Shown here piece after piece: positions 2,109 to 32,322 of a stretch of 32,322 bases of DNA (its first letter is position 1; every line of letters begins with the position of its first letter). Below the pieces are notes generated by a model that searched no databases, had not been told where the DNA came from, and saw nothing but the letters and a program-made list of their open reading frames with translations. The stretch is from IMG/VR virus record IMGVR_UViG_3300032272_000050, positions 1-32,322 of that record; one strand, 5' to 3'. This DNA is from a virus (lineage: Duplodnaviria > Caudoviricetes). The position numbers and the translations under genes were made by a program.

Positions 2109-3320
2109 ATGGCACGATTAAAAGACAAAATTCGATATCTTGTAATAATTCCCAACGCTGATGGCAGTTTTCGCGCCTACTGGCGGCCATCCACATATCT
2201 GCGGCAGCAACACGGCTGGAAACAGGAATGTCTGGGCACCAGCCTTGGTCAAAACGACTTGCATGATGCAAAAAGCCGCGCCATGGAACTCAACGACCAG
2301 ATGGATGCCTGGCGCCGCGGCGATCAGCCAACCAACACCGGTGTTGCCCGCGCCGCGCGCCAGCAGCTGATGATGGATCATTTGATTGATACTTGGTTGC
2401 GCTCGGCTGAATTTTCCGCGCTCGCGCCGTCAACCAAAAGATTTTACAGCGCCCACGCACCAATAGTGCAGGCCTGGGGCAAAGATATCCCGGTCAGGGA
2501 AATCACAGCCAGCATGGTTCACGGCCTCTACCGCGAATTTGCCGCGCACCACCCGCGAAAGGCGCAAGCGCTTGTGCAAACCGGGCAGGCGGCCTTCACA
2601 TGGGGCACGCTCAACGCATCGCAGATCGGCAAGGGTATGCCGCAAAGCGTTAATCTCAGTCCGTTTGCCAGGCAAAAAATGCATCACAAGCCCAAAAAGG
2701 GCGCCATATGGTCGCCGGCGGCAATCACGGCCATCGTAGAGGCCTCGGATACCTACCAAAACAAAGACGGCGTCACCTATCACAGCATCGGCACCGCGGT
2801 TATGATCAACGAATGGGTCGCGCAGAACACCTGCGATATTATTGCCCTGCAGCGCGCATGGTATGTGGAAGGCTCAATTGATTTTGCCCGCTCCAAAACC
2901 CAAATTGGTGTCAAGGTTCAGCTGCCGGCCGCCGTGCAAGCGCGGCTTGAACAAGAACGCACCCGGCAATTGGCGCGGAACCTGTCACCCATGAGTTTGC
3001 TGGTTTGTGACGGCTCGGGTATGGCGTGGCGGTACCGGCATTTTTGCCGCGTGTTTGCAAAAATTCGGGACTTTGCGGCAAAAACCAACCCCGGTATCAG
3101 CAGTGAGATTACCGGCCTGCATTTCAGGGAGTTGCGCCACACCGGGGCCACACGAATGGACGAAGCAGGGGTGCCGCGCGCCCAAATTGCAGCGGTGATG
3201 TGCGTTTCAGTGGATACCGCAAACAACATCATCGACAGATACAGCAGCCGCACAAATAAAATGGCAGACGCTGCTATCGAGAAGCGCATCGCCTTTGAAT
3301 TGGCCGCAAAAAATAAGTAA
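2109..3320 (+). CDS. int: Tyrosine recombinase/phage integrase family protein with degenerate catalytic motifs
   Basis: GGAGG RBS; N-terminal arm-binding-like region, LAPSTKRFY core-binding helix, SKT lysine, FRELRHTGAT box II and C-terminal DRY tyrosine; adjacent to a tRNA-derived att core. Confidence 0.88.
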   Translation: MARLKDKIRYLVIIPNADGSFRAYWRPSTYLRQQHGWKQECLGTSLGQNDLHDAKSRAMELNDQMDAWRRGDQPTNTGVARAARQQLMMDHLIDTWLRSAEFSALAPSTKRFYSAHAPIVQAWGKDIPVREITASMVHGLYREFAAHHPRKAQALVQTGQAAFTWGTLNASQIGKGMPQSVNLSPFARQKMHHKPKKGAIWSPAAITAIVEASDTYQNKDGVTYHSIGTAVMINEWVAQNTCDIIALQRAWYVEGSIDFARSKTQIGVKVQLPAAVQARLEQERTRQLARNLSPMSLLVCDGSGMAWRYRHFCRVFAKIRDFAAKTNPGISSEITGLHFRELRHTGATRMDEAGVPRAQIAAVMCVSVDTANNIIDRYSSRTNKMADAAIEKRIAFELAAKNK

Positions 3321-3379: not shown

Positions 3380-3616
3380 AGTCTACCGTCTGGGGTTAAA
3401 AAAGTCTACCGCGCAATAATATTACAAAATTAACTTTTAATAAACTATTGAAAATAAAGGAAAAAATGGTGCCGGCACCAAGATTCGAACTCGGGGCCTG
3501 ATGATTACAAATCAACGGAATAATAATATATTTCAATGACTTAGGTTTTTAATTATACCAAAATATCCATTAAAAAACGCCAAAAGTCTACCGCGTGAAA
3601 CCATAACAGTCTACCG
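3380..3616 (+). repeat. Four direct repeats AGTCTACCG (putative integrase arm-type sites)
   Basis: Copies at 3380-3388, 3403-3411, 3585-3593 and 3608-3616: two pairs, each with 23-bp periodicity, flanking the tRNA fragment. Confidence 0.85.
3467..3516 (-). mobile_element. att core: 3' portion of tRNA-Thr(UGU), attP-like
   Basis: Minus strand reads GTTGATTTGTAATCATCAGGCCCCGAGTTCGAATCTTGGTGCCGGCACCA: anticodon arm with TGT, T-arm with GTTCGAAT, 3' acceptor strand and CCA. The 5' acceptor strand and D-arm are absent. Confidence 0.9.
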
Positions 3617-3697: not shown

Positions 3698-4861
3698 CTA
3701 ATGGTTGAGCCCAAATTTTACAGTATGACGCCGCGGGTAATGTCGTTGATTTATTGCATTCCTTACAACCAAACCGACCGCCATTCCTATTAGGGGATAG
3801 GAAAAATACTTTGCAAAAAGCATCAATATTACAGCAGAGATAAAACACATAACCGCGGATAAATATAGCTTATCAATTTCATTACCGGATGGCCTTAATC
3901 GGAAGGCACAAAAAACTATTGTAGCTAGTAATAGCCCAAATCCCAATAAGCCAGTATCAACCCAAGCCGACAAAATATTGTGCACATAGTATCCGTCCCG
4001 ATATTCTCCGTAGCTACCCAATATAGGGCTTTGCATTATGGTACGCCAAGCTTCAGGAACTAACTCGGAGCGCGCAATAAATGAATCATCAGCCGTTAAT
4101 GTTAAAAGCCCCCAAACACGGCTATCAGGAAACCAAGAATTTAATATAAATGTAAAAATCCCTAGAAAAATGGCGGAAAACAAAATCATCTTCATGAAGG
4201 ATTTACCGCTTGGCCCGCGGCGTAAAAATTCAACAGCGATAGTGGAAAAAACAAAGGCGATAATCTCTGAACGTGCCCCTACAGCAAAAAAAGTTGCCAA
4301 AGTAACCGAGAGAACAGTCCATTTTAATTTTCCATCAAGATTAGGCATCACAAAAAATGACATTGCTAAAATAGCCATTGCAACGGCCTGATAATTAAAG
4401 CGAACAAAAACCAAGTCCAATATCCCGCCAACAGACAAAATAGGAGATGTCCACAATATCAATGCAGAAATCATAATTAACGCAGCCACTATCCTGTGAA
4501 GCGAACGACTATCTATGTTAGCCGGCCAATGTCGGGCCATGAGATAAAGTCCCAACATTTGAATAAGACCAGCCATATGTGATTTTTCTACATTTTCGCT
4601 TGCCTCTCCAAAAAGAAGCGACAGGAAAAACACTAACAAAAATCCAAAAAATGTCACGCGGGAGGCTAGCGCATATTGTTTATACCGCATAAATGCTGCG
4701 CTGGACTTTAATGCCAAAATGGGAATACACAAAGCCGCGAGCAGTGTTAATCCACCAGGAAACTGGAAATTTGAATAGCCCGCAAAAAAAAGAACCTGCG
4801 AAACCACAAAAGCAGGAAACAGTATATAGAATGCGGTAACGGCAGGGTAAAATCTTAGCAT
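3698..4861 (-). CDS. O-antigen ligase/polymerase (Wzy_C-like) polytopic membrane protein; moron
   Basis: Many hydrophobic segments, with GARSEIIA and HNILSAWVDTGLLG motifs typical of WaaL/Wzy_C proteins; visibly AT-rich relative to the structural genes. Confidence 0.8.
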   Translation of the reverse strand: MLRFYPAVTAFYILFPAFVVSQVLFFAGYSNFQFPGGLTLLAALCIPILALKSSAAFMRYKQYALASRVTFFGFLLVFFLSLLFGEASENVEKSHMAGLIQMLGLYLMARHWPANIDSRSLHRIVAALIMISALILWTSPILSVGGILDLVFVRFNYQAVAMAILAMSFFVMPNLDGKLKWTVLSVTLATFFAVGARSEIIAFVFSTIAVEFLRRGPSGKSFMKMILFSAIFLGIFTFILNSWFPDSRVWGLLTLTADDSFIARSELVPEAWRTIMQSPILGSYGEYRDGYYVHNILSAWVDTGLLGFGLLLATIVFCAFRLRPSGNEIDKLYLSAVMCFISAVILMLFAKYFSYPLIGMAVGLVVRNAINQRHYPRRHTVKFGLNH

Positions 4862-6323: not shown

Positions 6324-8810
6324 TTAATCTGATAGTTTTACGACCGTATATTTAACCGTCCAGTCGTATACTGCAGCACCGCCAGAGGTTAAATAAAATC
6401 TGGCAGTGTTCCCACTAGCGGCCCAATTATATGTTCCAGCATAACCTGCGCTTGGCTCGTTATATAGAATACCAACGGCGCCTTGTAATGTGGCCCCGCC
6501 GCCGCCGTCGCGGTAAAAAGTGGCGCATTTTTTAAACCCTACTCTTTCGCCAGAACCCGAAAGTTTTCCTATACCTTCCGCTGTAAGAAGGTATGTACTT
6601 TCGTCTTCGAGGTTGCATTTCCACCCGGTAACGTTAGCGGTACTTGTGCTTTGAGAAACAACTGTAACCGGCGTCCCCACAGAGCCGATATTTCCAAGAT
6701 CAAAATAAGCCGTAGCATCATCGCCATACGTCGGGTTTGACGGAAAAGCAGTGAAGTCATCAACAGACCGAACGCCATTCGTCGCATATCCTGAGACTTT
6801 CAACGTGCCGTGAATGCCTACCAAAGCGCCGGAATTTTCACTGATAATGCCGTACAACATGTTAGAGCCGCTGTCGGTTATATCTGCATCGTACATATCA
6901 ACTGTTGCGGTTGCGCTTGCTACGCTGATACCGCTGTGTAAGCCGGCGGTTGAATTGGCTTTTCGGATGATGGGATATAGTCTAATTCCGCTGCTGTTTG
7001 TAGCATCAACTAAAATCCCGGCGCGACCCGACCCATTAGATTGGACATGGCACTCAAGGTCACTAAGGTTATCACCGGACAAAACCAGCGCATGCTGGGT
7101 GGAATTATAGGCAACAACATAGACTGAACTGGACCGCACATTTTTTTCAACTGATACGCCACGTTGACAATCAATCGCTATAATCTGGTAGTATCCATTT
7201 TCAATGGAACCAGTGCCTGTCGTTTGAATCGCCAGCGCCGCATCCAAAGCGTTTGAACAGGTAACACCGCTAACGATACATCCGCGGATTGCTTGGTTTG
7301 GTGTTCCCGATTGAATTTTGATACTATTAAGCGCAGTGCCATCGATGGTTCCGCCATTGATGTTCACATGGGTTTGCGCATAAATTCCGTGTTGGCCGGC
7401 AATGTCATGGATATTCGGATTTATAAGGTTGGTGCGACTGGTGCCGGTGAAACCAGAATATCCCTGCAGGACAACACCCTGCGCTGTGCCACTAATTTTG
7501 GCACTAATGGTTAAATACTTAATCTCGCCGTGCGTTGCATCGTGGGTAGCAAACACGCCCATTTGAAAGTTAGAGCCCGCATTAATTGTCTGCGAATAGG
7601 CGTGCGTTCCCTCGATGGTCACACTGTCTTCAATGGTGTTGTGGTCACCGCCCGTCATGGCCACGCCAGCGTGCGCCCAATTGCGTATGTTCAACCCGCG
7701 TACTGTGCAATATTTACAAGCATACATGTCAATACCCCGGTCAAAATGACCGTTGCTCGACCAAGCGTTATCGTAATTGCCGGCGCCGTAAAGTATACCA
7801 TCGCCGTCAATGGTTGTACCAATGGCTGAGGTCAGCCGAAAACATGGCTTGTTATCAGTTATTTGGTTAATCTGGCAACCCGCCGCCACCGTAACGCGGC
7901 AACTACTTGGCACATCAATGGCGTCGGTGATTTTGCAGGCACCGCCACTGATAACCACATGCGGGGAAGCATTAACTAGCCGTTGCAGGGCAGCGGTGTC
8001 ATCGGTTGAATTGTCGTGCTTCACGCCAGCCACCGCGCTAAAAATTAAATCTCCTGAAAGCAAATGCCAGCGTCCGGTGCCGCCTTCGTCGGCAGCAAAA
8101 ACAGTCACACCGGTGACGGTCGCTGTCGACGCAGCACGCCATTCAAAAACCGCTTGTCCTTTATCGCCCTGCGTAGCGTAAGCAAGATTGAAAATGCGAT
8201 CGCCGTCGTGCAAGCCAGAAATTAACAGTGCTGTCATGGCAGCGCGCGTGCTGACTTTTTCAAGATTTTGCAGACTAAAGTTACCCAACGCCTCGTTGAT
8301 TGCATCCTCGATAAGATCGGCGGGTGGCCCAACAGCCGGTGCGCCGCCAGCGTCAAATTTAAGCAACTTACCCTGCCTATCCGCGGACAGAGGTAGCTCC
8401 ATTGCAACAGCCAAATCACCCCGGGCGCGGTGCAGTGTAGTGGCCCTTATTCCGGCGGCCTCTTGCGCTTTGAGCATTACATCATCTAACCCGGCTTCAA
8501 GCTGGCTTGCAGGGTTGCCGCCGCTTTCGGTAAAGGCCTGTGTCTGGGTGCCGCCGCTATCGCGCCATACCTCCAGGTAACCTGTCGCAAGTGGCGAAGT
8601 GGTAGTCAAAACACCGGCGCCGCTATCGCCAATGCCCGAGAGGGTATAGTCAGCGGTCAATACCAGCGTGGTGGAAACTTTCGCGCTGGTGTCATGATGG
8701 ACAGCCTTGATATGGCTATCGTCTTTGTAAACAATGCCAGCAAGCGAAAACACCGCGGTAGACCCGTTGGTGGAAAATTCACGGCTGGTATCAGTAAGAG
8801 CGATGGTCAT
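6324..8810 (-). CDS. Tail fibre/tailspike with N-terminal virion anchor and right-handed beta-helix (putative polysaccharide depolymerase)
   Basis: GGAG RBS before MTIALTD at 8810; T7 gp17-like N-terminus (NGSTAVF...DYTLSG); GVKHDNSTDDTAALQ helix-cap motif followed by G/N/I/V-rich beta-helix rungs. Confidence 0.85.
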   Translation of the reverse strand: MTIALTDTSREFSTNGSTAVFSLAGIVYKDDSHIKAVHHDTSAKVSTTLVLTADYTLSGIGDSGAGVLTTTSPLATGYLEVWRDSGGTQTQAFTESGGNPASQLEAGLDDVMLKAQEAAGIRATTLHRARGDLAVAMELPLSADRQGKLLKFDAGGAPAVGPPADLIEDAINEALGNFSLQNLEKVSTRAAMTALLISGLHDGDRIFNLAYATQGDKGQAVFEWRAASTATVTGVTVFAADEGGTGRWHLLSGDLIFSAVAGVKHDNSTDDTAALQRLVNASPHVVISGGACKITDAIDVPSSCRVTVAAGCQINQITDNKPCFRLTSAIGTTIDGDGILYGAGNYDNAWSSNGHFDRGIDMYACKYCTVRGLNIRNWAHAGVAMTGGDHNTIEDSVTIEGTHAYSQTINAGSNFQMGVFATHDATHGEIKYLTISAKISGTAQGVVLQGYSGFTGTSRTNLINPNIHDIAGQHGIYAQTHVNINGGTIDGTALNSIKIQSGTPNQAIRGCIVSGVTCSNALDAALAIQTTGTGSIENGYYQIIAIDCQRGVSVEKNVRSSSVYVVAYNSTQHALVLSGDNLSDLECHVQSNGSGRAGILVDATNSSGIRLYPIIRKANSTAGLHSGISVASATATVDMYDADITDSGSNMLYGIISENSGALVGIHGTLKVSGYATNGVRSVDDFTAFPSNPTYGDDATAYFDLGNIGSVGTPVTVVSQSTSTANVTGWKCNLEDESTYLLTAEGIGKLSGSGERVGFKKCATFYRDGGGGATLQGAVGILYNEPSAGYAGTYNWAASGNTARFYLTSGGAAVYDWTVKYTVVKLSD

Positions 8811-20004: not shown

Positions 20005-21012
20005 TCAAGAGGGATATGCAATTTTATAGAAATGCGCGCGCTTTGCGACAGCTTCCTTGTGGCCAGGATCGCGCGGATTGCGCAGGGCTTCCTGGAAGCC
20101 GGTGTCCAGTTTCAGTTCTTTCAGGGTTGCTTTCGCATCCGCGGGCGAAGTACCAAAACCACCAGCGGCGCCGCCAGATGTCAGCACATCTTCGCCCAGC
20201 ATGGTGCCTATTCTATGCATCATCCGCAACACGCCCGGACCACCCACCGTCGTCTCAAGGGTGTCGATGGCTTCAGCCTGTTTTTGATCATCATACAGGC
20301 CCAGATGCGCGGCTGCGGCTTTCGCCAAACTCAGGTTACCGTCATATTCACCGCCCCAGTCTTTTTTCAGGGCTTCCGTTGTCGATTTAAGATCAGCTGC
20401 AGAGGCTGCTGCAATTTGCTCGTGCGCCTCTTTCTGGTGGTCAGCAAACAGGGAAATCAGTGGCTGCAATTGCTGCGGCAATAACTTATGTTCAGCTGCA
20501 ACCTCTAAAACCTTGGCTTCGAGATTTTCATCATACGCCATGTCCTGCGGCAGCTCGGGTCGCTCAACCTTGTAACCGGTCGCATCGTCTGGGGCACCCA
20601 GCTTGCTGTAAAAATCGCCTGCCAGCGGATCAGCCGCACTAGGCAACTCAACGGCATTTTTATTACCGATCAATTTTTCAGCGCCGCGCCAGCCATCGCC
20701 GAGCCTGTTCAACAATGTTGGCAGGTCCATATCCTCGGACACATCAAGGCGCTTTGCCTTCATCAGGGCTAAATTTTCCTCTGACAGGCCATCAAAAAGG
20801 TTCTTTCCCGGTTCGGGTGCCGGTGCGGGTGCTGGTTCAGGTGCCGGTTCGGGCGCAGGCGCAGGTGCTGGGGCGGGCTCAGGCTCAGGCGCAGGCGCAG
20901 GTGCTGGTTCGGGTGCTGGGGCGGGCTCAGGCGCAGGCGCCGGGCTACCAGCCGGCGGGGTCGCTGGTGTCATCATTTGGGCGGCGGTGCCCGGTGCTGG
21001 ATCTTGTGGCAT
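20005..21012 (-). CDS. Capsid scaffolding protein with Pro-rich N-terminus
   Basis: GGAGG RBS; located between portal and capsid; AEKLIG, KLGAPD...Y, LKKDWGGEYD and PGHKEAV motifs. Confidence 0.8.
   Translation of the reverse strand: MPQDPAPGTAAQMMTPATPPAGSPAPAPEPAPAPEPAPAPAPEPEPAPAPAPAPEPAPEPAPAPAPEPGKNLFDGLSEENLALMKAKRLDVSEDMDLPTLLNRLGDGWRGAEKLIGNKNAVELPSAADPLAGDFYSKLGAPDDATGYKVERPELPQDMAYDENLEAKVLEVAAEHKLLPQQLQPLISLFADHQKEAHEQIAAASAADLKSTTEALKKDWGGEYDGNLSLAKAAAAHLGLYDDQKQAEAIDTLETTVGGPGVLRMMHRIGTMLGEDVLTSGGAAGGFGTSPADAKATLKELKLDTGFQEALRNPRDPGHKEAVAKRAHFYKIAYPS
20808..20945 (-). repeat. Degenerate 6-bp tandem repeat encoding (PA/PE)n
   Basis: Units such as CCTGCG/CCTGAG/CCAGCA/CCCGAA encode PAPAPEPAPAPE... 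Confidence 0.9.
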
Positions 21013-21301: not shown

Positions 21302-22992
21302 AGCGCTTGTGCCTCGGCGTCCGCCAGATTGGCCTGCGCTTCATTGCGGTTAATTGTCGAAGACACGTCCGCCGCAGCCAGCGCCTGTTGTCCAGCTTCA
21401 ATAGCCTGATTAGCCTGGCGGCGCGCGGCGACTTCAACTTCCGGGCGCAACAGGGTCGCAGGCGCACCCAGCGCGCTTTGCATAATTGCCGGTATCGCCT
21501 CACCGTTGACATGATCAGCCACACCAGGATCAAACTGGCTGGCGACACCAACCGACTGTAAAAATCGCATGGTTGAACTACCAGCAGATACCTTCTGCGC
21601 GCGGTCCATGGCGCTTTCCATCACCACGCCGATATCCCTGTTTTCAATCTCGGGCGGCGGCGGCGGCAAGCGCCGGGCGCGCTGCAGCTGACTAACCCGG
21701 CGCTCGATAATAGGCACCAGAAACGGCCCTTGAATTTGGGTCAGGTGCGGCCCCATTAATTGCAGGCGCCGCTGTTCTTCCGCCAGAAATTCTTCCGAGC
21801 TGATGCCGGTGCGGCCTTCACTGAGAACGCTGAATAGATTGAACAGAAATTTTTCCTTAATTTGTGTGCGTTCCTCTTTGCTCATTTCCAAGGCATGCTG
21901 AAAGCTGCCGCTTGTATCGAGAACATCAGCAAGTCGTTTGCCCTGTCGGCTGATACCACCAACGATGATGTTGCCCGGCTTCTTGACCAGTTTGTTTTTC
22001 ACATCTTCGTCGTGGGTCAGCAGCATCGGATCAACAGCCATGTTACTGGCCGTTAACATATCGCGTTTGATGATGTTGGCTGACTTCACCGTCGACAGCG
22101 CTTTTTGACCCAGCCCGCGGGCATATTCGCCGCGAATGCGGCCAAGGCGCAACCAGCTGATCGGAAACTCGTGGGTGCCGCCCACATGAACGGCGTGCGA
22201 AGTTTCCATCAGGATAACCACACTGGTAAAGGCAAAACCTTTTGGCCCGAGACGCCCTTCAGTAAAACCGGGGTTGCGCAGGGATACATGCAGCAAGCGG
22301 TGCAGGTGCTCATCCTTGCCGGTTTTTTTATTCTGACTACCAGCCTTTAGGGCATCTTCGCCGTATTGAGCGATGATAAAATCTTCACGCGCGGAATAGA
22401 GCCGGTAGTTAGCAATGATATCGCCGTCATCGTCCACCTCGGCGTAATTTTCACCTAGCGGCAACGCCCGGTCAATAAACCGGCCACTGCGCGGATCAAA
22501 GCGGTGATACATGGGCGAATTACCGAACAGCCCCGAGTCAGCAAGGGTTTCCGGCATCCATGTATAAAACGGGCTGATATGCGGTTCGAAGCTGTCGCGC
22601 ACCACCCGTGTTGCCTGTTCCAGCCACAGCTTTACCGGCTGAAATTTTTCCAGTTCGTCATCATCAAGGCCAAGAGTGAACCAGGGCACCGACGGGTTGG
22701 TGGTAGCACCAAACAACCCGCCAACAAAATTATCAAGCGCGTCTTCGCCGGTGTCATCGTAGCGGCCAAGCGACCGCTGGCGTTTTTTCATGCCAGCCTT
22801 ATTGGTAGCTTCATAGCGGGTAAAATCATCGCGCGGGTCACCCATGAACTTGGCAATTGTGCGCCAGTCGCTTTCCAGCGTGGTGCGGTCGGTTTGCAGC
22901 TTGTTTGCCTTGGCTTTCAGCCGCGTGGCTGAAATACCAAGCCCGTCGATCATATCGTTGGCGTGAACCGGTGCAGTTTCAATGGCAGGCAT
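21298..22992 (-). CDS. Portal (head-to-tail connector) protein
   Basis: 564 aa; TNPSVPWFTL, VKLWLEQ, YARGLGQKAL, DPML and FLVPIIER motifs of T7 gp8-type portals. Confidence 0.9.
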   Translation of the reverse strand: MPAIETAPVHANDMIDGLGISATRLKAKANKLQTDRTTLESDWRTIAKFMGDPRDDFTRYEATNKAGMKKRQRSLGRYDDTGEDALDNFVGGLFGATTNPSVPWFTLGLDDDELEKFQPVKLWLEQATRVVRDSFEPHISPFYTWMPETLADSGLFGNSPMYHRFDPRSGRFIDRALPLGENYAEVDDDGDIIANYRLYSAREDFIIAQYGEDALKAGSQNKKTGKDEHLHRLLHVSLRNPGFTEGRLGPKGFAFTSVVILMETSHAVHVGGTHEFPISWLRLGRIRGEYARGLGQKALSTVKSANIIKRDMLTASNMAVDPMLLTHDEDVKNKLVKKPGNIIVGGISRQGKRLADVLDTSGSFQHALEMSKEERTQIKEKFLFNLFSVLSEGRTGISSEEFLAEEQRRLQLMGPHLTQIQGPFLVPIIERRVSQLQRARRLPPPPPEIENRDIGVVMESAMDRAQKVSAGSSTMRFLQSVGVASQFDPGVADHVNGEAIPAIMQSALGAPATLLRPEVEVAARRQANQAIEAGQQALAAADVSSTINRNEAQANLADAEAQAL

Positions 22993-23230: not shown

Positions 23231-23804
23231 CGCAGCGAACTCCATTATTGGTGGCTGGTACATCGCCGTACCAGGCAAATTGTTTGAAGCTTTCGCCGTT
23301 CTTGCCCAACAACGGCAGATCAGCTTCAAAGGTGGCGCCCAAATATTCTATCCAGCGGCAATTGGCTGGAGCGCTTGCCATGGCCCGCACTTCAACCCGC
23401 ATCAAACCCAGCGAGCGCAAAAGCGGTATGGCGCTATCTTTGATAAACCGCGTCATTGCATGCGCAATTTCCCCGAAGCGCTCTGTGGCAAAAAATCCGG
23501 CACCGCAAACACCGGGGCTTTGGTTGGTCACAACCATCAAAGCCACAGGGGCGGTGCCTTCATCCGAGGAAAAAATTTTGAAATAGGGGCAATGGCCCGC
23601 TTGATGTAATTGCCAGTGAAAGCTGGCCAATTGTTCCCAGTCGGCGCTTTCGGTCAGGGCATACACTTCGCGCTGATCCTCGGGACGCATATGGCGGCAG
23701 ACATGGCGCAGCGCAACCAGCGTCGGGTCTTTCACCACCAAATCAGGCGATGCAACCGGAACCGCTACATCCCGCGCGGGATGGCTAGACACTGAAGGGG
23801 TCAT
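23214..23804 (-). CDS. GNAT-fold/T7 gp13-like protein
   Basis: HMRPEDQREV and RWIEYLGATFE...GKNGESF motifs; start uncertain (23804 or 23819). Confidence 0.65.
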   Translation of the reverse strand: MTPSVSSHPARDVAVPVASPDLVVKDPTLVALRHVCRHMRPEDQREVYALTESADWEQLASFHWQLHQAGHCPYFKIFSSDEGTAPVALMVVTNQSPGVCGAGFFATERFGEIAHAMTRFIKDSAIPLLRSLGLMRVEVRAMASAPANCRWIEYLGATFEADLPLLGKNGESFKQFAWYGDVPATNNGVRCDVYAA

Positions 23805-25275
23805 AACTCTCACTTTCAACTGATCGCAGGCCGTGTGGCTGGCTGGACCGGCCAGCAGGCGAGCGCACGCCGTGCAATCCGCGCTCGCCGATTATTTCCA
23901 TATCTGCATACCCCCCGGCATCGCACAGGTCTGACCATGGGTGGTTTTTCACCGGTTCCTCGGTAAATTGATCGGTGCCTTCGCGCCGCGCACTGCCCTG
24001 AATTTTTCGGTAATGATATTTGCTGTTGCAGGCTTTGCGGTACACCACACAGCTGGGGTCAATAATCACGCGCGGGGTGATCGCATCAATGCGTTCTTCA
24101 AAAAGGGTCTGGCTGGCATCAATGCGCGTGCGCGGATTATTGGTCATCGCAGGCTCAACCCTTATATCAGCAGCTTGCGCCACCTGGTCAATCCAGGGAT
24201 CGTCACTGTTTTCGGTGGCATTCACCGCCGCGGGGTCAGCAACACCGTAAGCCGGGATACCGGGAAAATCACGCGCCAGCAAGCGCCCAAGTTCCTTGCC
24301 AAAACGCGGGCCCGCGGCACCTTCCATCATAAATTCGCGCAATACCCGCACCTGGCCGCCCGGGGCTTGCTGTTTTATCAGAGCCGCGGGGGTGCGCCCG
24401 GCGTCAAGGCCAATAACCAGATCAACATTCTCAATCGCCTTCAGCGGCACCGGTGACATATGCACCTTGTCGTCATACTGGGTGTAAATCGGCTTGCCCT
24501 CGCGCGAGCGGGCGTAGCGGTTGTGAACCATGCGGTCCACCATCCATGGCTTGTTTTTCAGGGCCTCTATCTGGCGCTGGTAATAATCCCGCCCGCCCGG
24601 CAGGTTTTGCAGATTTTCGGCGCCAGGCTCAAGCCCGCCGGGCTGCACAAAAAATGCCATATTTTCGGGGCGGCTTTCTTCGGCAAATACATACATATAA
24701 TTGTCATCGTCGGGCGCGTTATAATCACCCAAAATGCCAGCCCAACTTGGACCACCGTGCTGCTTGCCCGGATAGCGACCATAGCGGGTCACCGCCCATG
24801 TAATAATTTCCTCGGCGCATAGATCAGTTTCGTTGGGCCACAGTCCGGTAAATTCAAGGCCGCGCATCGCGTCTTCAACGGCTTTGTCCTCAATGGCAAT
24901 AAAATGCACTTCACAGTCCATTTTTGTACCGTCTGCAAGCGCCCCTTTAATGTGATGCAGGCCCGGCACACCGCCGCGTCCACCGGTGAAACTTTTCGGC
25001 GCCAGCCCTTTTTTGACAGTCCAGTCCTTATACGACGGAATAGTGGTGTTTTGCAGTTGACGGTAGGTGTCGCGCACAGCAATCCAGCGAGTATAACGGG
25101 TGTTATCAAGCGGGCTCGGGCGCTGCATCATGGCCAGTGTCAGTATTTTATTGATCAATGTTGCGGTTTTACCGCTACCGACCGGGCCCCTGATAAAAGC
25201 AATTTCAGCCACACTATCAAAAAACGCCTGCGACACCGGCCCGGGACATTTGAACAAATGTGTCGGCGCGGTCAT
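23785..25275 (-). CDS. terL: Terminase large subunit
   Basis: Walker A GPVGSGKT, VRDTYRQLQNTT, RGLEFTGLWPNE Walker B, nuclease motifs IGLDAGRTPA and KNHPWSDLCDA. Confidence 0.93.
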   Translation of the reverse strand: MTAPTHLFKCPGPVSQAFFDSVAEIAFIRGPVGSGKTATLINKILTLAMMQRPSPLDNTRYTRWIAVRDTYRQLQNTTIPSYKDWTVKKGLAPKSFTGGRGGVPGLHHIKGALADGTKMDCEVHFIAIEDKAVEDAMRGLEFTGLWPNETDLCAEEIITWAVTRYGRYPGKQHGGPSWAGILGDYNAPDDDNYMYVFAEESRPENMAFFVQPGGLEPGAENLQNLPGGRDYYQRQIEALKNKPWMVDRMVHNRYARSREGKPIYTQYDDKVHMSPVPLKAIENVDLVIGLDAGRTPAALIKQQAPGGQVRVLREFMMEGAAGPRFGKELGRLLARDFPGIPAYGVADPAAVNATENSDDPWIDQVAQAADIRVEPAMTNNPRTRIDASQTLFEERIDAITPRVIIDPSCVVYRKACNSKYHYRKIQGSARREGTDQFTEEPVKNHPWSDLCDAGGYADMEIIGERGLHGVRSPAGRSSQPHGLRSVESESYDPFSV

Positions 25276-27077
25276 ATCATTTCCCCCGGTGCCGTATCGC
25301 GCGGGTCATCGTCGGGCAATACCAAATCAATCGGCAAGGCAAGACAGCGAGACGCAACGCCGGAAAATTTCATCGGACGTGGCCACGGGTATGCCCCTTG
25401 CGGCTTAAAGCGCTCAAGGGCTTGGCGCCACACACCGTTGTCGCCGGGCCGGCCGGCCCAGCGCGTCCCGGTAAATATTTTGATCAAACCGGCGTGGCCG
25501 TTGGCAACAAGCAGATATTGTTTTCCGCCCTTATCCACCACACGCAGCCCTTTGCGCTGCAGACGTTTATCGTAAGCTGGCGCGTCGGTGATATCCTTGC
25601 CAGAGGCATGGCGCACCAATTCGGATATCACCATACGCTGGCCACCAGTGAAATCGTCATCTTCTGCGGTCAACAGGTGCGCGAGGCACCCTTGCTGTTC
25701 GGTACCTGTCGCCGTCAGTTCGTGCAATTTGGCCGGGTCAAGCTGTTCAACGAGCCCGCAAATGCGCTCATGGGACACGCTGGTTTTATGAAGTGCCATA
25801 TCGGCACACGCCAGCAGGTTGCCAAACAAATCGGCTGATCGGTTAGTGTGGCCCATGCCGACAAGCGCGCGCTGATATTCGGCCAGCGTTTCATCGAAAC
25901 GATGCCACTGGGTAAAGAATTTGTGGCGCAACCCTGCGCCGATTGCGCGCAAGTCGCCGTCATCCAGAACCGGCACAGGGGTGCCGTCAGGAATAGGGTC
26001 AAGTTCGACAATCACCATTCGGTTTCTATCCTGCGCTGTCAGCGGCGGGATCAAAATCGAACTGAACAAAAAGCAGCTGCGCGCCTGAAACTGTACCCCC
26101 ACATGGTCGCTGCCGCCGCGCAGGATCAAATCACCGCTTGCTGCAACTCGCGCCAGCTCGACCACCTTGTTAATTTTGCGGTTGTCTTCCGAGGCTTCCA
26201 CCTCGTCCAGCTGTACCGGCAGGGTCTGATAACCAAGCGTTTGCCAGATAGAGGCCGCCGTTGCGTCACCGGCGCGAACAATGTTGCCAACAACCGTGTT
26301 AATAACATGCTGCAGGGTTGACTTTCCGGTTGAACTGTCGCCGGTTATCCATGTCACCGGACGCCAGCTAATCGCACCGCCCAGCATGGCCGCGCAGATC
26401 CAGCCAAAAATCAGGTATTTGTCAATCGGGCGGTTATAAAACCACTTGCCCAACGTGTCCATCAGCGCCGCACCGGGGTCAGACGCCGAATATTCCGTTG
26501 GTTTTACGCCTGTCGCCGCGCCGGGGTAAACATAGCCGTCGATCAGGCCGGGCGCAGCGGCGGTATATTTTTTACCCGCCTTGTCATAAAAGCTGTAAAT
26601 CTGATTGCCGGTATGCATCACCAGCCGACCGTTATCGTCGCGCCAACAACCGCGACCGCGCAGGCGTTCCGCTGGATCAAAAATTCCTTTCAGCGCTGCG
26701 CTGTCCATGAGATCATGCGAGGCATGCTCACAAGCGAAGCCGACAACCTCTGACGGGCTTTCCTTTGTACCTTTGCTCCAGCGGGGCCAATATTCCCATG
26801 TTTTGCGGCTGTCGGGCACAAACAGGCTTTGCACATCAAGCTTGCCGTGTTCCTTGCGTTTCAGCGGGATAAGCTGTTGCAGTCCGTCCAGGTAAAAATA
26901 GGTGCCACCGTTGATACCCAGCGGCTGCACGGGAAAGCCATCAAACCGGTCAACAGGATCAGGGCGGGCCGTTTTTCCAGCACCGCCGTCGCCGGGCCGG
27001 GCCACAACCGGCGCGTTGTCCAGCTTGTCACGCATCAGCGGAACCACGTCGGCGCCGTTTGTTTTTTTGTCAGTCAT
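25272..27077 (-). CDS. Replicative P-loop ATPase/helicase (primase-associated, SF3-like)
   Basis: Walker A GDSSTGKST, Walker B VQLDEVE, FLFSSI sensor, QDRNR arginine finger. Confidence 0.8.
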   Translation of the reverse strand: MTDKKTNGADVVPLMRDKLDNAPVVARPGDGGAGKTARPDPVDRFDGFPVQPLGINGGTYFYLDGLQQLIPLKRKEHGKLDVQSLFVPDSRKTWEYWPRWSKGTKESPSEVVGFACEHASHDLMDSAALKGIFDPAERLRGRGCWRDDNGRLVMHTGNQIYSFYDKAGKKYTAAAPGLIDGYVYPGAATGVKPTEYSASDPGAALMDTLGKWFYNRPIDKYLIFGWICAAMLGGAISWRPVTWITGDSSTGKSTLQHVINTVVGNIVRAGDATAASIWQTLGYQTLPVQLDEVEASEDNRKINKVVELARVAASGDLILRGGSDHVGVQFQARSCFLFSSILIPPLTAQDRNRMVIVELDPIPDGTPVPVLDDGDLRAIGAGLRHKFFTQWHRFDETLAEYQRALVGMGHTNRSADLFGNLLACADMALHKTSVSHERICGLVEQLDPAKLHELTATGTEQQGCLAHLLTAEDDDFTGGQRMVISELVRHASGKDITDAPAYDKRLQRKGLRVVDKGGKQYLLVANGHAGLIKIFTGTRWAGRPGDNGVWRQALERFKPQGAYPWPRPMKFSGVASRCLALPIDLVLPDDDPRDTAPGEMI

Positions 27078-27286
27078 CCGATACTCGCACTGTCAATGGT
27101 GTTTTCATTCACATGAACCGCAAATAAATTGCGGCCGGTGATATCAACGCCGGGCATATCTTCCAGCATCGGCGGAACCAGTTCTGAACTAATCAGCAGA
27201 TCATGCGACTGCGACACCGACACCCGGGCCGTAGGGTCAAAATCATCAAACCGGTCGATAATATCTTTTAGCTGGTAAAGCCTCAT
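27074..27286 (-). CDS. Hypothetical protein
   Basis: 4-nt overlaps on both sides; 70 aa. Confidence 0.65.
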   Translation of the reverse strand: MRLYQLKDIIDRFDDFDPTARVSVSQSHDLLISSELVPPMLEDMPGVDITGRNLFAVHVNENTIDSASIG

Positions 27287-27624
27287 AGCGAACCACCGGA
27301 TAAAAGAGGATTATCAGGATCAAATTCCACATGCAGGTGTGTATCTTCAAGCACCACATCATAGTCGCCGCCGAGCCGCTGTTGCATCGCCGCGGCAAAA
27401 TACGACTTGTCACTATCGATCAAATGCCGGGTTCTGAAATCAACAGCGTTGCCCTCATAATGTTTTGAATTTTTGGAATGCTTACCGTCGCACAGGCTGG
27501 TAACCACACAGTTGGCATTTTCTTCAGATAAAATCTGGTTGGCGACTTCGATTGCATGCCAAATTTCAGGGCGTACACAGCCGGTTTTGCAATAGCCTTT
27601 CACGCTGTTTTTAAACTGGATCAT
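27283..27624 (-). CDS. Zn-dependent M15-family (Hedgehog/DD-peptidase fold) peptidase, candidate endolysin
   Basis: VVTS...H...SKHYEGNAVDFR (SxHxxGxAxD) and HLHVEFD zinc ligands; GGAGG RBS. Confidence 0.85.
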   Translation of the reverse strand: MIQFKNSVKGYCKTGCVRPEIWHAIEVANQILSEENANCVVTSLCDGKHSKNSKHYEGNAVDFRTRHLIDSDKSYFAAAMQQRLGGDYDVVLEDTHLHVEFDPDNPLLSGGSL

Positions 27625-28696
27625 GGGGTGCCTCCTGATAATTCGTCGATTGCAGCCAGTCGTTCGGGTCCTTGCCCGCGCTCTCCGGCGTTTGAAAATC
27701 TATAACCACCCGGCCCTTGGCGGCGTGCGCCTTGATCGCTTTCTCAAAGGCAGCGATAGCCTGCGGATTGTCCCAGTCGTTCTGGCGGCAAAGAATAACC
27801 TCTTTCACCGTGTCTGGCAGCCATACGGCCGCAAGGTTCGACAGGCTCACCGCCGCATGAACCCGCAGTGTTGGGTCAACCAGCGCCATGGTCAGCGCGT
27901 CCTCGATCCCTTCGGTCAGCGCAATGCGCTCGCCCGGAGGACTGTCTTTCAATGGGCAGCGGCTGGCGCCTCGCCATATGGGGATGCTGCCGCCAGCATA
28001 GGTTCCGTAAACTTTTTTACAATTGGCCAGGGGGGCCTTGAACCATTCATTTGGCTGCGTTTCGTCCTGAGACTGGGTCAGATAGGTGCGATGCGCCGCC
28101 ATAAAACCCCGTTCGCCGGTGATACAGGCCATCATAGCGGGCAGACCTGATCGACTTTCGCGTTCATAAGCGTCTGGATGGAAGCGCAACGCGCCCGGCT
28201 GCCGGGGCCATTCACGCAGGTCAACGCCGCGACCACGCAAATAATAGTCAACCGGTGTGTCGCGCAGCTTAGGCTCGGCCGACAGCCACATTTTATGAGC
28301 CTTGTCGCGGCGCTTGACGGCATCCTGCTGTGCAACATAATCCTGGTGTTTGACTGCAGCCTGCGCGTTCTGCTGTCGGCGGCGCAACTCCGCCGGTTCA
28401 ATATCATCAATTCCAAGCCAGCCCTTGGCCCATTTGACCGCTTCGCCGCGGTTGCCGCCGGTGACCACTTTTTCAATCAATATCAGCGCATCGCCCTTGT
28501 CATCGTCGCTGCCGCCGTAGTCTACCCAGGCACCTGCGCGCACACCGCGGTACAGTTTCAGGCTCTGCCCGCGCTCACCCGCCAGCGAGCCAAGCTCGAA
28601 CCAGCCAGCTTTACGCACCGCGTTTGGGAACAGTTCCATAACGAGGCTGTCCCAGCGGGTATTAAGCATGGCGATAATGTCTCTAATTTCCATCAC
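27611..28696 (-). CDS. Toprim-domain DNA primase
   Basis: GSLAGERGQSL N-terminus, YLRGRG, LRFHP, HRTYL, TEGIEDALT and QND Toprim motifs, GKDPNDWL end. Confidence 0.85.
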   Translation of the reverse strand: MMEIRDIIAMLNTRWDSLVMELFPNAVRKAGWFELGSLAGERGQSLKLYRGVRAGAWVDYGGSDDDKGDALILIEKVVTGGNRGEAVKWAKGWLGIDDIEPAELRRRQQNAQAAVKHQDYVAQQDAVKRRDKAHKMWLSAEPKLRDTPVDYYLRGRGVDLREWPRQPGALRFHPDAYERESRSGLPAMMACITGERGFMAAHRTYLTQSQDETQPNEWFKAPLANCKKVYGTYAGGSIPIWRGASRCPLKDSPPGERIALTEGIEDALTMALVDPTLRVHAAVSLSNLAAVWLPDTVKEVILCRQNDWDNPQAIAAFEKAIKAHAAKGRVVIDFQTPESAGKDPNDWLQSTNYQEAPHDPV

Positions 28697-29127
28697 AAGA
28701 CCCCCTGCGCATATTGGTCCAGCGCCTTTTCAAAAAACAATTGATCGGGGCTTGGGCGAATATCAGGGCGCGGAGCAACAGCCAGGGTGCCACAGGTGCG
28801 AACGCGAGCAGAAGCGGTTGCTATTGGTTGACCCGTGGCGCGAGCCCGGGAAATGGTGGTTTTGTTGGGAACTTTGCCTTTCGGTGACGCCAGGGTGCGC
28901 GCACCCTTGAAACGGCCCTTGCATATCTCCACCACACGGTAGTTATAGGGCCATAGTTCCACACTGATAAAACCCAGCTGCACCAAATGACGCAAAGGCG
29001 CACGGCTGATACCATGTACGTCCTGTAAATATTCCCGGGTTGGGCATCGTTCATTTGACATTGCCACGGTGACAAAAATGTTAAACAGCTTGAATTGCTT
29101 CTCTGTCAGTTGGGAAAATTCACTCAT
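28693..29127 (-). CDS. Putative winged-helix DNA-binding protein
   Basis: LTEKQ...CPTREYL...LRHLVQLGFI resembles a LexA-type N-terminal wHTH. Confidence 0.55.
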   Translation of the reverse strand: MSEFSQLTEKQFKLFNIFVTVAMSNERCPTREYLQDVHGISRAPLRHLVQLGFISVELWPYNYRVVEICKGRFKGARTLASPKGKVPNKTTISRARATGQPIATASARVRTCGTLAVAPRPDIRPSPDQLFFEKALDQYAQGVL

Positions 29128-29483
29128 GAGCGCGCACCATGAAAACGAGTAATGGCAGAGCCAAATCGCTCGGTCGCGGCTGAAATGTATCGTTCAATTT
29201 GACGATACGCCGCGGGTGATACAGGCCCGCTAAAATCACAATCAGATAAAGCGAAGAAATCGCTGATATGTTTTTCAACAGGTACAGGTGGTGACATCGG
29301 TTTTTTGCGTGCCGACAGTATCCTTTTCATGGCCGGATTAAGCCGCAGGTATGACAGACGGGCAGAAACCTCTTTCGTATAGCAAGCAAGACAGTGACCT
29401 ATTTGCGCATCTGTGAAGCCCTGTTCAACCAACCGCACAAGCTGCCGGTCATACTGGGTGTTCCATTCAATAGTAGCTGTCAT
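29124..29483 (-). CDS. GcrA-like N-terminal HTH protein
   Basis: WNTQYDRQLVRLVEQGFTDAQIG...V.ARL.YLRL resembles the GcrA N-terminal pattern W....L..L...G.S..QIA. Confidence 0.5.
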   Translation of the reverse strand: MTATIEWNTQYDRQLVRLVEQGFTDAQIGHCLACYTKEVSARLSYLRLNPAMKRILSARKKPMSPPVPVEKHISDFFALSDCDFSGPVSPAAYRQIERYISAATERFGSAITRFHGARS

Positions 29484-29761
29484 AGCTCTACTCCCTGGCC
29501 TGCGACATATACTTTTGGGGCGCCCAGCGCCTGAAAGCTGGCACCAAGAAAAAACCCGAGCATGCCAAAGCGGGTTTTTTCGTCAGCATTTTTAAATGCG
29601 ACCCTTACCGCTTTTGGTGCGAGCAACGAAGGTTCACAACAAGAAAAATCGGGGCAGCATTCATCCCGCCCAGAATTATGAATTGATATGCCGTTGACCC
29701 ATTCCGATAACTGTTCGTCAGGCGTCATGTCACGTTCCAGCTTTTCAATTGCAGATGTCAT
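29480..29761 (-). CDS. Hypothetical Cys-rich phage protein
   Basis: HN...ECCPDFSCC motif; GGAG RBS. Confidence 0.7.
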   Translation of the reverse strand: MTSAIEKLERDMTPDEQLSEWVNGISIHNSGRDECCPDFSCCEPSLLAPKAVRVAFKNADEKTRFGMLGFFLGASFQALGAPKVYVAGQGVEL

Positions 29762-30062
29762 CGCTCCACCCCCTGACCCCAGTTCCCCACTCTGAATTTT
29801 CCGCGATTTTTAGGGGTTCCTTTTTGAAAAATCGCCGCTATACACACGCCTATTCCCTCTAATGGGGTTGCAGGCGCGGGTACCCCCCCTTGATTTTTTT
29901 CGGCGCATGACCCAGCAAAACCATGGGGGGAGGGGGTCAAAGCCTGTTGATAGGCAATCAACGGCTTTGTGCCAAATCTTCCATATAAATCAATGGCTTG
30001 CTTTATCACGGTAGACATTATGCGGTAGAGTTTCACGGTTCCACCTCGCTAACCTGTTGATT
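29760..30062. promoter_or_regulatory. Cis-acting region with IHF consensus sites, a dif-like 28-mer and G/C tracts (candidate packaging/recombination site)
   Basis: Perfect WATCAANNNNTTR matches at 29988-30000 (+) and 30050-30062 (-); dif-like sequence at 30001-30028; G/C homopolymer runs at about 29769-29936. Confidence 0.5.
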
Positions 30063-30641
30063 TTCCTCAATATTATTTTCTGGCAATTGCTCAACTACTT
30101 TGGGTGTGGTCGCGGCCAAAGCGGGGTCCAGCTGCTGGATCAGGCCAGCCGCACCACCAGCAATGGCCTTTGATGCGATGTCACCGCCGAGAAGAAAGCC
30201 CAGGCCCAGCGGTGTGTCGGCCTGCAGTTCCAGCGCCTGCGGCATTTTCTGCGCAACATAGGGCGCAACATTATTGGCAGCGGCCAGCTGTATCTTGGCG
30301 GCATCGACCAGGTCACATTTCAATTCAGCGGCCAGCAACGCCAACGGCCGGCTGGCATATTGCATCAGCACCACCAGCGGGTGGGTGTATTGGCTCAACA
30401 GAAAAGTGCGCATCTGCTCGGTGCTTTTGTTCTTCGCACCCTTTGGCCGTCCGGGCGCGCGGTGCTGGCTGATTATCGCGCCCATGCTATCGATATCGGG
30501 GACCTCGCCATCGGCGGTTTTTTCAGCCAGCAAACTCAACTGCTCAACCGGCCTGAGCGGCAACAGCGCATCCGGCGACACCGCCTCAAGTGCGGTATCA
30601 AGCGCCGCAGAAACACCCGTTTTTGCACCGGCGTCACTCAT
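30033..30641 (-). CDS. Putative terminase small subunit
   Basis: GRPKGAKNKST and AANNVAPYVAQK motifs seen in TerS-like phage proteins; start uncertain. Confidence 0.55.
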   Translation of the reverse strand: MSDAGAKTGVSAALDTALEAVSPDALLPLRPVEQLSLLAEKTADGEVPDIDSMGAIISQHRAPGRPKGAKNKSTEQMRTFLLSQYTHPLVVLMQYASRPLALLAAELKCDLVDAAKIQLAAANNVAPYVAQKMPQALELQADTPLGLGFLLGGDIASKAIAGGAAGLIQQLDPALAATTPKVVEQLPENNIEENQQVSEVEP

Positions 30642-30704: not shown

Positions 30705-30952
30705 GTAACGGCATTTTAAAGACGTTACCGTTTGCGTTACCTTTTTTCATTCAGCTAAACCTTTGAATTTAAACATTTAATTACACTAATATCAATTTAG
30801 TAACGGTGGTAACGGTGGTAACGCATAATTTTGCGCAATAGGCACGCATAGGTGCATGTATCTGGCATCTGTTGAGCGTTACTAGCGTTACTTTGTAACT
30901 CTCTTTATATTTCAAAGAGTTAAGAGGTAACGCCCCTGTAACCCCTCGTTAC
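30705..30952. repeat. Putative replication origin with 12 GTAAC/GTTAC iterons
   Basis: GTAAC at 30705, 30800, 30809, 30818, 30895, 30927, 30938; GTTAC at 30724, 30736, 30878, 30887, 30948; AT-rich spacers; non-coding. Confidence 0.75.
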
Positions 30953-31179
30953 CAAACAAACCCAAAATTTCGCGTTTTTCCTTTTTCAGTCCTATGGGTT
31001 AGGGTGAGGGTCAAAAAGGCGGGGTTGGCGGCTGGTTGGCGCATTATGCTATCGCTTTCAATGTGGGTGTTTTGGTTGGTTAATCGCCACCCGCAGGCAC
31101 ACTATGGCAAAGCGGTAGCAGGTGGCGATGTGCTGGCGATGGGAGCAACGCCAGGGGAAATTATATAAAACCGGCCGGT

Positions 31180-32083: not shown

Positions 32084-32322
32084 ATGAGAGCCAAGAAAAA
32101 GACACCGCATATCGACTGGCAACAGAATGTTACCGATCAAATCGTGAAACAACTAGAGCAGGGCACCGCGCCCTGGTCTCGGCCTTGGGCAATCAACGGC
32201 TATAACGGCCTGGCCAAGCGCCACACCGGCGAATATTATCGCGGCGTCAATCTATTAGTTCTTGATATGGCAACCATGGCCAAAGGCTGGCACTCAGGCT
32301 ATTGGATGACGTTCAGACAAGC
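32084..32322 (+). CDS. ardC: ArdC-like (DUF1738) ssDNA-binding antirestriction protein, 5' part; runs off the window end
   Basis: Manual translation after AGGAG: ...VTDQIVKQLEQGTAPWSRPW...TGEYYRGVNLLVL...WMTFRQA, all hallmark ArdC N-terminal motifs. Absent from the ORF track. Confidence 0.9.
   Translation, partial: MRAKKKTPHIDWQQNVTDQIVKQLEQGTAPWSRPWAINGYNGLAKRHTGEYYRGVNLLVLDMATMAKGWHSGYWMTFRQ

Follow-up and report, generated by a model that had tools for sequence, protein, structure and literature searches.

Phage integrases are usually taken to act at att only and to mark a temperate lifestyle. In phage P1, recombination by Cre at loxP, close to pac, circularises redundant DNA and resolves dimers. 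The sites used by the host Xer recombinases have two 11-bp arms around a 6-bp spacer, and recombination of attL by attL with Int and IHF, the "bent-L" reaction, is said to exist. The arrangement of lambda attL is one in which, according to PMC4880445, IHF at the H' site lets two Int bridge two arm sites to the core. Full-text searches of the main texts of openly accessible papers turned up no account of a module with Int arms and core placed beside terS.

The stretch of DNA analysed here (the window) is a single contig of 32,322 bp in which no terminal repeat was detected. Its virion genes form a podovirus-type set related to those of BcepC6B, DU_RP_II and HTVC010P, and its other genes include a repressor, a primase, helicase-like genes and an integrase at 2109-3320; ARAGORN found no tRNA genes in it. 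A repeat with a 12-bp period in a scaffold-like gene (20798-20968) codes for a Pro/Ala/Glu-rich stretch, and the N-terminal anti-restriction domain of ArdC at 32084-32320 (plus strand) is interrupted by the contig end. At the end of a TerS-like gene, 26 kb from attP, stand the following features:

29946..29962, no strand: core-type inverted repeat GTTGA-n7-TCAAC, with the same half-site as the att core and a different spacer
29988..30000, plus strand: IHF2, perfect consensus, between the arms and the core
30009..30016, minus strand: arm 2, GTCTACCG, its start 59 bp ahead of the core spacer
30023..30030, minus strand: arm 1, CTCTACCG, 14 bp from arm 2
30050..30062, minus strand: IHF1, perfect consensus, 32 bp before arm 1 and within the TerS-like coding end

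The order is IHF, arm, arm, inverted IHF and core inverted repeat, the whole overlapping the stop codon of the TerS-like gene, and its composition marks it as a half-att (lambda attL-like) module and a predicted Int site. A sequence-only reading of this DNA had noticed the two arm motif copies (30009 and 30023, minus strand), which are indeed there, and the two perfect IHF sites, which proved to be the only two in the window by the consensus used; their number is not by itself significant (29 of 100 shuffles reach two), but their position is. The interval it reported was too short: the core inverted repeat was overlooked, and the site runs over the stop codon of the TerS-like gene. It had also noted a single isolated copy of the arm motif elsewhere, at 8756; this copy was found, but a second at 2527 had been missed. 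A scan had been proposed for the significance of the cluster; TCTACCG has eight matches in the window against 1.41 expected, a number reached in none of 100 shuffles: besides the two isolated copies, these lie at 30009-30015 and 30023-30029 (minus strand) and in att at 3382, 3405, 3587 and 3610. A 92-aa GTG ORF running across the module (29758-30036) has no Pfam or PHROG match and is probably not a gene.

The second locus, attP, lies 3' of int and is made up of four GTCTACCG arms, two IHF-like sites and half of a tRNA-Thr(TGT):

2109..3320, plus strand: tyrosine integrase, 403 aa, lambda-Int-like with three domains (phrog_1, E 1e-11)
3381..3411, plus strand: Int-proximal arm pair, GTCTACCG twice (copies at 3381 and 3404, 23-bp spacing)
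3441..3453, minus strand: IHF-like site, one mismatch
3467..3516, minus strand: attP core, the 3' half of tRNA-Thr(TGT), with 45-nt exact genome matches
3531..3543, plus strand: IHF-like site, one mismatch
3586..3616, plus strand: distal arm pair, GTCTACCG twice (copies at 3586 and 3609)

The crossover core, GTTGA-TTTGTAA-TCATC, occupies 3500-3516, and identity to the host tRNA loci reaches GTTGA. The 45-nt tRNA half is matched exactly in 11 genome loci, and as eight of these are named Kordiimonas or Kordiimonadales/-aceae, the matches point to Kordiimonas, or its family or order, as the host group. A decayed fragment of a close Int was found in one of ten genomes holding the att tRNA. The assembled contigs of one run, possibly the one from which the window came, revealed no genome joints or termini, and the loose contig ends that stop at the att core most probably belong to tRNAs of other organisms. 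In a Kordiimonas genome (L268, G070:C3:33227-48568) the same tRNA-Thr holds a 14.7-kb element with attL and attR, which gave no match to the window Int. Adjoining attP at 3698-4861 (minus strand) is an AT-rich O-antigen polymerase/ligase-like gene (weak PF04932; phrog_19842), likely to be a serotype-conversion moron. As a profile against solved structures the integrase matches lambda Int chains only, from residue 37 (the arm-binding region) on, and its predicted model has a pLDDT of 85.

Relatives were collected by alignment-based searches, which turned up, with the TerS-like gene, 34 viral loci and 23 genome loci and, with Int, 26 loci; single-protein locus searches had returned no relatives, so that alignment queries were needed. 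A common layout is found at the terS ends: an IHF site is followed after 32-33 bp by a pair of direct repeats of 7-8 bp, spaced 14-16 bp from one another, and these by a reversed IHF site and, 57-61 bp past arm 2, a core in which a 5-6-bp inverted repeat surrounds a 7-bp spacer; the distances in the window (32, 14, 16 and 59) fit this exactly. With wide search ranges, and in a set that includes duplicates of one phage, the 32-33 bp distance of IHF1 was recovered in 57 of 76 rows, and that of the core, 57-61 bp, in 56 of them. IHF2, perfect in the window, is often weaker in relatives (5-7 of 9). When geometry alone was used, 89 matches were obtained in 3.68 Mb of overlapping loci, all except one at terS 3' ends (88/89); merging left 49 distinct modules, one of them probably spurious, and the spacing is rigid across about 50 distinct relatives. 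The position of the module relative to the terS stop codon floats, from -79 to +34, which indicates that it is a DNA element and not a peptide that is conserved. The arm motif itself has 22 variants among the phages.

There was no credible module in six cultured phages (BcepC6B, DU_RP_II, HTVC028P, Pan3, MinM1 and RHph_N3_2). An upstream variant of the module can be seen by eye in the uncultured MT835534. In L037, L046, L035 and G027 a further shared element, GGCAGCTAAT, is present both in the left core half of the module and in the att arm region. At L223:11200-12086 and in L204, Int and different arm repeats lie in direct convergence with the TerS-like gene, module and G/C block; the stretch examined contained no terL, capsid, portal or primase match, and is possibly a satellite or a deleted prophage.

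An important consideration is whether the arms and core of the module belong to the integrase of the phage that carries them, and for this the att of each phage was located independently through its tRNA half. The module arms are present exactly in the att flanks of the same phage in 25 of 33 phages, the window included, compared to 9.9% of mismatched pairs (an earlier version of the test gave 19 of 25), and the arm match sum of 68 is to be set against a permutation maximum of 37 (100,000 permutations; p<1e-5); the eight misses are one-mismatch copies in att, or were mis-parsed. The core half-sites likewise follow the phage's own att core (271 vs a permutation maximum of 265; 31 phages; p<1e-5): the unusual GTTGA of the window is a copy of the unusual stem of the host tRNA, and integrators into tRNA-Gly and tRNA-Arg have AAGC/ATGC-type cores. 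The arm and dif counts are without L046 and L035 (near-duplicates) and L063 and L074 (att unclear), the core test is in addition without G039 and L081, and the Mantel set is without G028; automatic parsing took the wrong repeat in G025 and L081, and both were retained in the counts. In Mantel tests on 50 phages, motif distance tracked the Int N-domain (r 0.25, p 0.001, also with TerS controlled) but not TerS (r 0.03, p 0.32, the TerS alignment being short and noisy), and TerS as the arm binder is, within the limits of that alignment, not supported. The phages are kin and all these p values therefore overstate independence, although many Int pairs are only 30-70% identical. The co-variation of arm motif and att arms that had been anticipated in related phages thus holds, and on its strength the earlier claim that the phage Int binds both loci is very likely to be correct.

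The module spacer and the att overlap agree at 2-5 of 7 positions and were never equal (31/31 phages), which rules out attL, attR, a secondary att and internal excision. By its sequence the module is set apart from a dif site as well as from attL/attR and secondary att. It is highly probable that Int binds it for a job in the lytic cycle, which suggests that the integrase has a second job beyond integration.

The surroundings of the module bear on what that job may be, and the relevant features of the window are:

23785..25275, minus strand: terminase large subunit gene, terL (PF03237, phrog_2; 35% to BcepC6B TerL), 4.8 kb downstream of the module
29864..29939, no strand: G/C-run block, directly past the module core
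30033..30641, minus strand: TerS-like gene, 202 aa (GRPKGAKN...APYVAQKMP), recognised by motif and by its position before terL in most relatives
30705..30955, no strand: GTAAC-type iteron-like repeats, upstream of terS

The TerS-like protein has no Pfam or NCBIfam match, a weak match to phrog_15261 and, as ESM Atlas neighbours, unnamed viral proteins, and its gene is a putative terS by position and motif only. In 28 of 38 records the densest G/C-run block is found between -100 and +260 relative to the terS stop, and it is a putative genome-end or packaging signal, whilst the GTAAC-type repeats, which have analogous variable counterparts upstream of terS in relatives, are a putative replication origin. 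In most relatives the replication genes precede terS and the module stands 200-700 bp ahead of terL. The gene order of the window (25272-30641), with replication genes between terS and terL, is common to L037, L039, L040, L050, L053, L054 and L055, and in these seven relatives as in the window a primase and a helicase separate the module from terL. Module and G/C block are found together upstream of terS in L079 and L082 and, by eye, also in L274. The module moves with the block and stays with terS in both gene orders, which ties it to the region of terS and the G/C block and not to the late operon. Past the block at 29839-29856 is a TACACACGC-type stretch that is inverted relative to L073, and several relatives have CACAC tracts past the block which may mark the genome end. 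In the DU_RP_II locus (L165:460-720) an IHF-like site and a G/C-run block, with no arm repeats, follow the gene preceding terL; the block may have arisen before the module did.

The integrase had been described as degenerate from the sequence alone, and this was borne out by the active-site alignment, in which the window enzyme has N240 in place of Arg, K263, R340 in place of His, R343, V366 in place of His, and Y378. Arg is among the core residues for catalysis listed by PMC10516654. The His of the HxxR motif is absent family-wide, including from prophages with attL and attR, and its loss is thus evidently tolerated; the window Int has Arg at this H-II position and is also without H-III. Arg I is kept in most Ints of the family, and these were found as prophages with attL and attR. 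Asn or Tyr stands in its place in eight Ints that form a clade (99% SH-aLRT in a quick tree) including the window and both att-less genomes, and it was replaced separately in P0029; the Asn of the window Int is shared with a 51%-identical relative. The att-less genomes, G040 (L061, L166) and G063 (L260, L261), are complete and circular with a full-length int and an intact module, and in neither was an att found, nor an arm cluster or tRNA half outside the module. It follows that the job of the module does not need att, and the int gene would mislabel both as temperate. Their Ints have no compensating Arg at the H-II position. Whether catalysis is needed for the job may be argued either way, as the evidence pulls in both directions.

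The best explanation at present, put forward tentatively, is that the module acts as a lox-like site at which two copies of it recombine, circularising the genome or resolving it. Two Int on the arms would reach the two core half-sites through a DNA bend made by IHF2, by analogy with lambda attL as outlined in PMC4880445. The module would lie within a terminal repeat, beside the packaging start, and two module complexes, on terminal repeats or in a multimer, would synapse, with IHF1 shaping the synapse; strand exchange within the identical spacers would then circularise an incoming terminally repeated genome, or resolve multimers, and the mismatch between spacer and att overlap would block recombination of module with att. 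The phased core with its private 7-bp spacer speaks in favour of this, as does the retention of K, R-II, H-III and the catalytic Tyr in the att-less clade, whose Ints are under purifying selection. The TerL has a Terminase_6N domain, which has been linked to headful packaging in bioRxiv 10.1101/2022.05.06.490963. No Erf, RecT or Sak4-type recombinase was found in 28 near-complete module-bearing records, a count that excludes Rad52-like Sak and RecA and has no matched control, and BcepC6B, which is without the module, has no annotated recombinase either. The loss of Arg I in the clade of eight weighs against self-recombination, but the attP of the window is still an exact copy of the host tRNA half despite the Arg to Asn change, so an Arg-less Int may still recombine. 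Further points against it are that the G/C block has the module upstream of it, so that inclusion of the module in the terminal repeat would require a cut upstream of the module or packaging towards it, that spacers recur among the 49 modules (TTGCGGA in four, TTAGTTA in three), which self-recombination does not require, and that the arms are one base off att in about 8 of the 33 phages. Cultured non-pathogenic lysogens, among them Zavarzinia aquatilis HR-AS, Jiella avicenniae CBK1P-4 and Neoroseomonas terrae LMG 31159 (loci L071, L070 and L205), carry the module, so direct testing is possible.

A close rival, possible although given less weight than self-recombination, is a non-catalytic role in packaging, in which an Int-IHF complex would fold the DNA beside the packaging signal and license or block the terminase. 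Packaging would in this way be tied to Int expression, and hence to excision, and Int would be an obligate cofactor, kept after the loss of att and Arg I; it is conceivable, at similar odds, that one lineage dropped integration together with the catalytic Arg, leaving Int purely as a packaging cofactor whose complex with IHF licenses the terminase. Packaging that starts ahead of excision creates a genuine difficulty for pac phages (PMC8575938), and MrpR is a recombinase fold reused for binding only (PMC10516654). The retention of module and Int where Arg I has been lost, with purifying selection on the clade Ints (dN/dS 0.06-0.16 in four pairs), is in keeping with a packaging role, but K, R-II, H-III and Y are all conserved in the att-less clade, and the exact attP of the window implies that an Arg-less Int integrated it recently. 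The joint movement of module and G/C block to a place upstream of terS, their staying with terS when replication genes separate it from terL, and the presence of IHF1 outside the arms, where attL requires no bend, also favour it; against this, the module persists with no G/C block after it in G005, G006, L199 and G066, and both TerS and pac are putative identities.

Transcriptional control, with module-bound Int repressing or activating a promoter of the downstream genes, is unlikely: it could draw on the MrpR precedent and on the short distance to terL in most relatives, but in the window and seven relatives the module precedes replication genes, in three it precedes terS, and a 7-bp-spacer core in fixed phasing exceeds the needs of a repressor. 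Marginally less likely still is a replication-linked role with the iteron region, such as activating the origin or switching the mode in which the genome replicates. In both gene orders a stretch of about 1 kb contains the iteron-like repeats, terS and the module, but how far the iterons lie from the module depends on the length and position of terS, and the fixed neighbour is the G/C block. The proposal that host XerCD recombines, gated by Int, at a dif-like site here is very improbable, since the count of 18/28 identities to the E. coli dif string is right but is at chance level (a second such match stands at 21576 in the window, and Markov-simulated windows average 0.8 of them, 56% of 200 having at least one), is unconserved (11-16/28 in the same region of 46 relative records) and consists of the arms and their variable linker, whilst the conserved core some 50 bp away copies the phage's own att core and has 5-6-bp half-sites and a 7-bp spacer, not the Xer geometry. 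A host dif was not located with two dif patterns in five genomes holding the att tRNA.

In dozens of divergent alphaproteobacterial phages there is thus a predicted second site for Int, dedicated to it, which has evolved together with the enzyme and outlasts att. Either one enzyme would integrate and also circularise, or the integrase would be a packaging factor, and both would change the reading of int genes in viromes; in addition, the matched arm motifs and Int N-domains offer a natural series from which a code for Int specificity might be read.

Set beside known systems, the module is most distant from IMEX elements and XerCD-dif, to which the chance 18/28 is the only likeness; unlike them it is without conserved XerC and XerD arms, has a 7-bp spacer and belongs to a phage with its own tRNA att. 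Podoviruses of the BPP-1/BcepC6B, DU_RP_II and HTVC010P types have related head, portal, tail and TerL genes, but there is no credible module in any of the six examined. MrpR of SPbeta (PMC10516654) is alike in having a tyrosine-recombinase fold that has lost catalytic residues, keeps K and Y and binds phage repeats, and unlike in being a master repressor with no arm domain or att. Cre/loxP of P1 is likewise a tyrosine-recombinase site near the packaging start, but Cre is dedicated, with no arm domain or IHF, whereas here it appears to be the integrase that also serves a second site, one dependent on accessory factors. With lambda attL (C'-H'-P'1,P'2), as set out in PMC4880445, the module shares two arm sites, an IHF site and a core with a 7-bp overlap; in attL two Int bridges are made by way of a U-turn at IHF. 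However, attL arises through integration and its overlap equals those of attB and attP, whereas the module is a permanent second locus whose spacer is its own, whose core is more symmetric and which has one further IHF site beyond the arms; its parts are lambda-type, and should the packaging model prove true it would count as categorically new.
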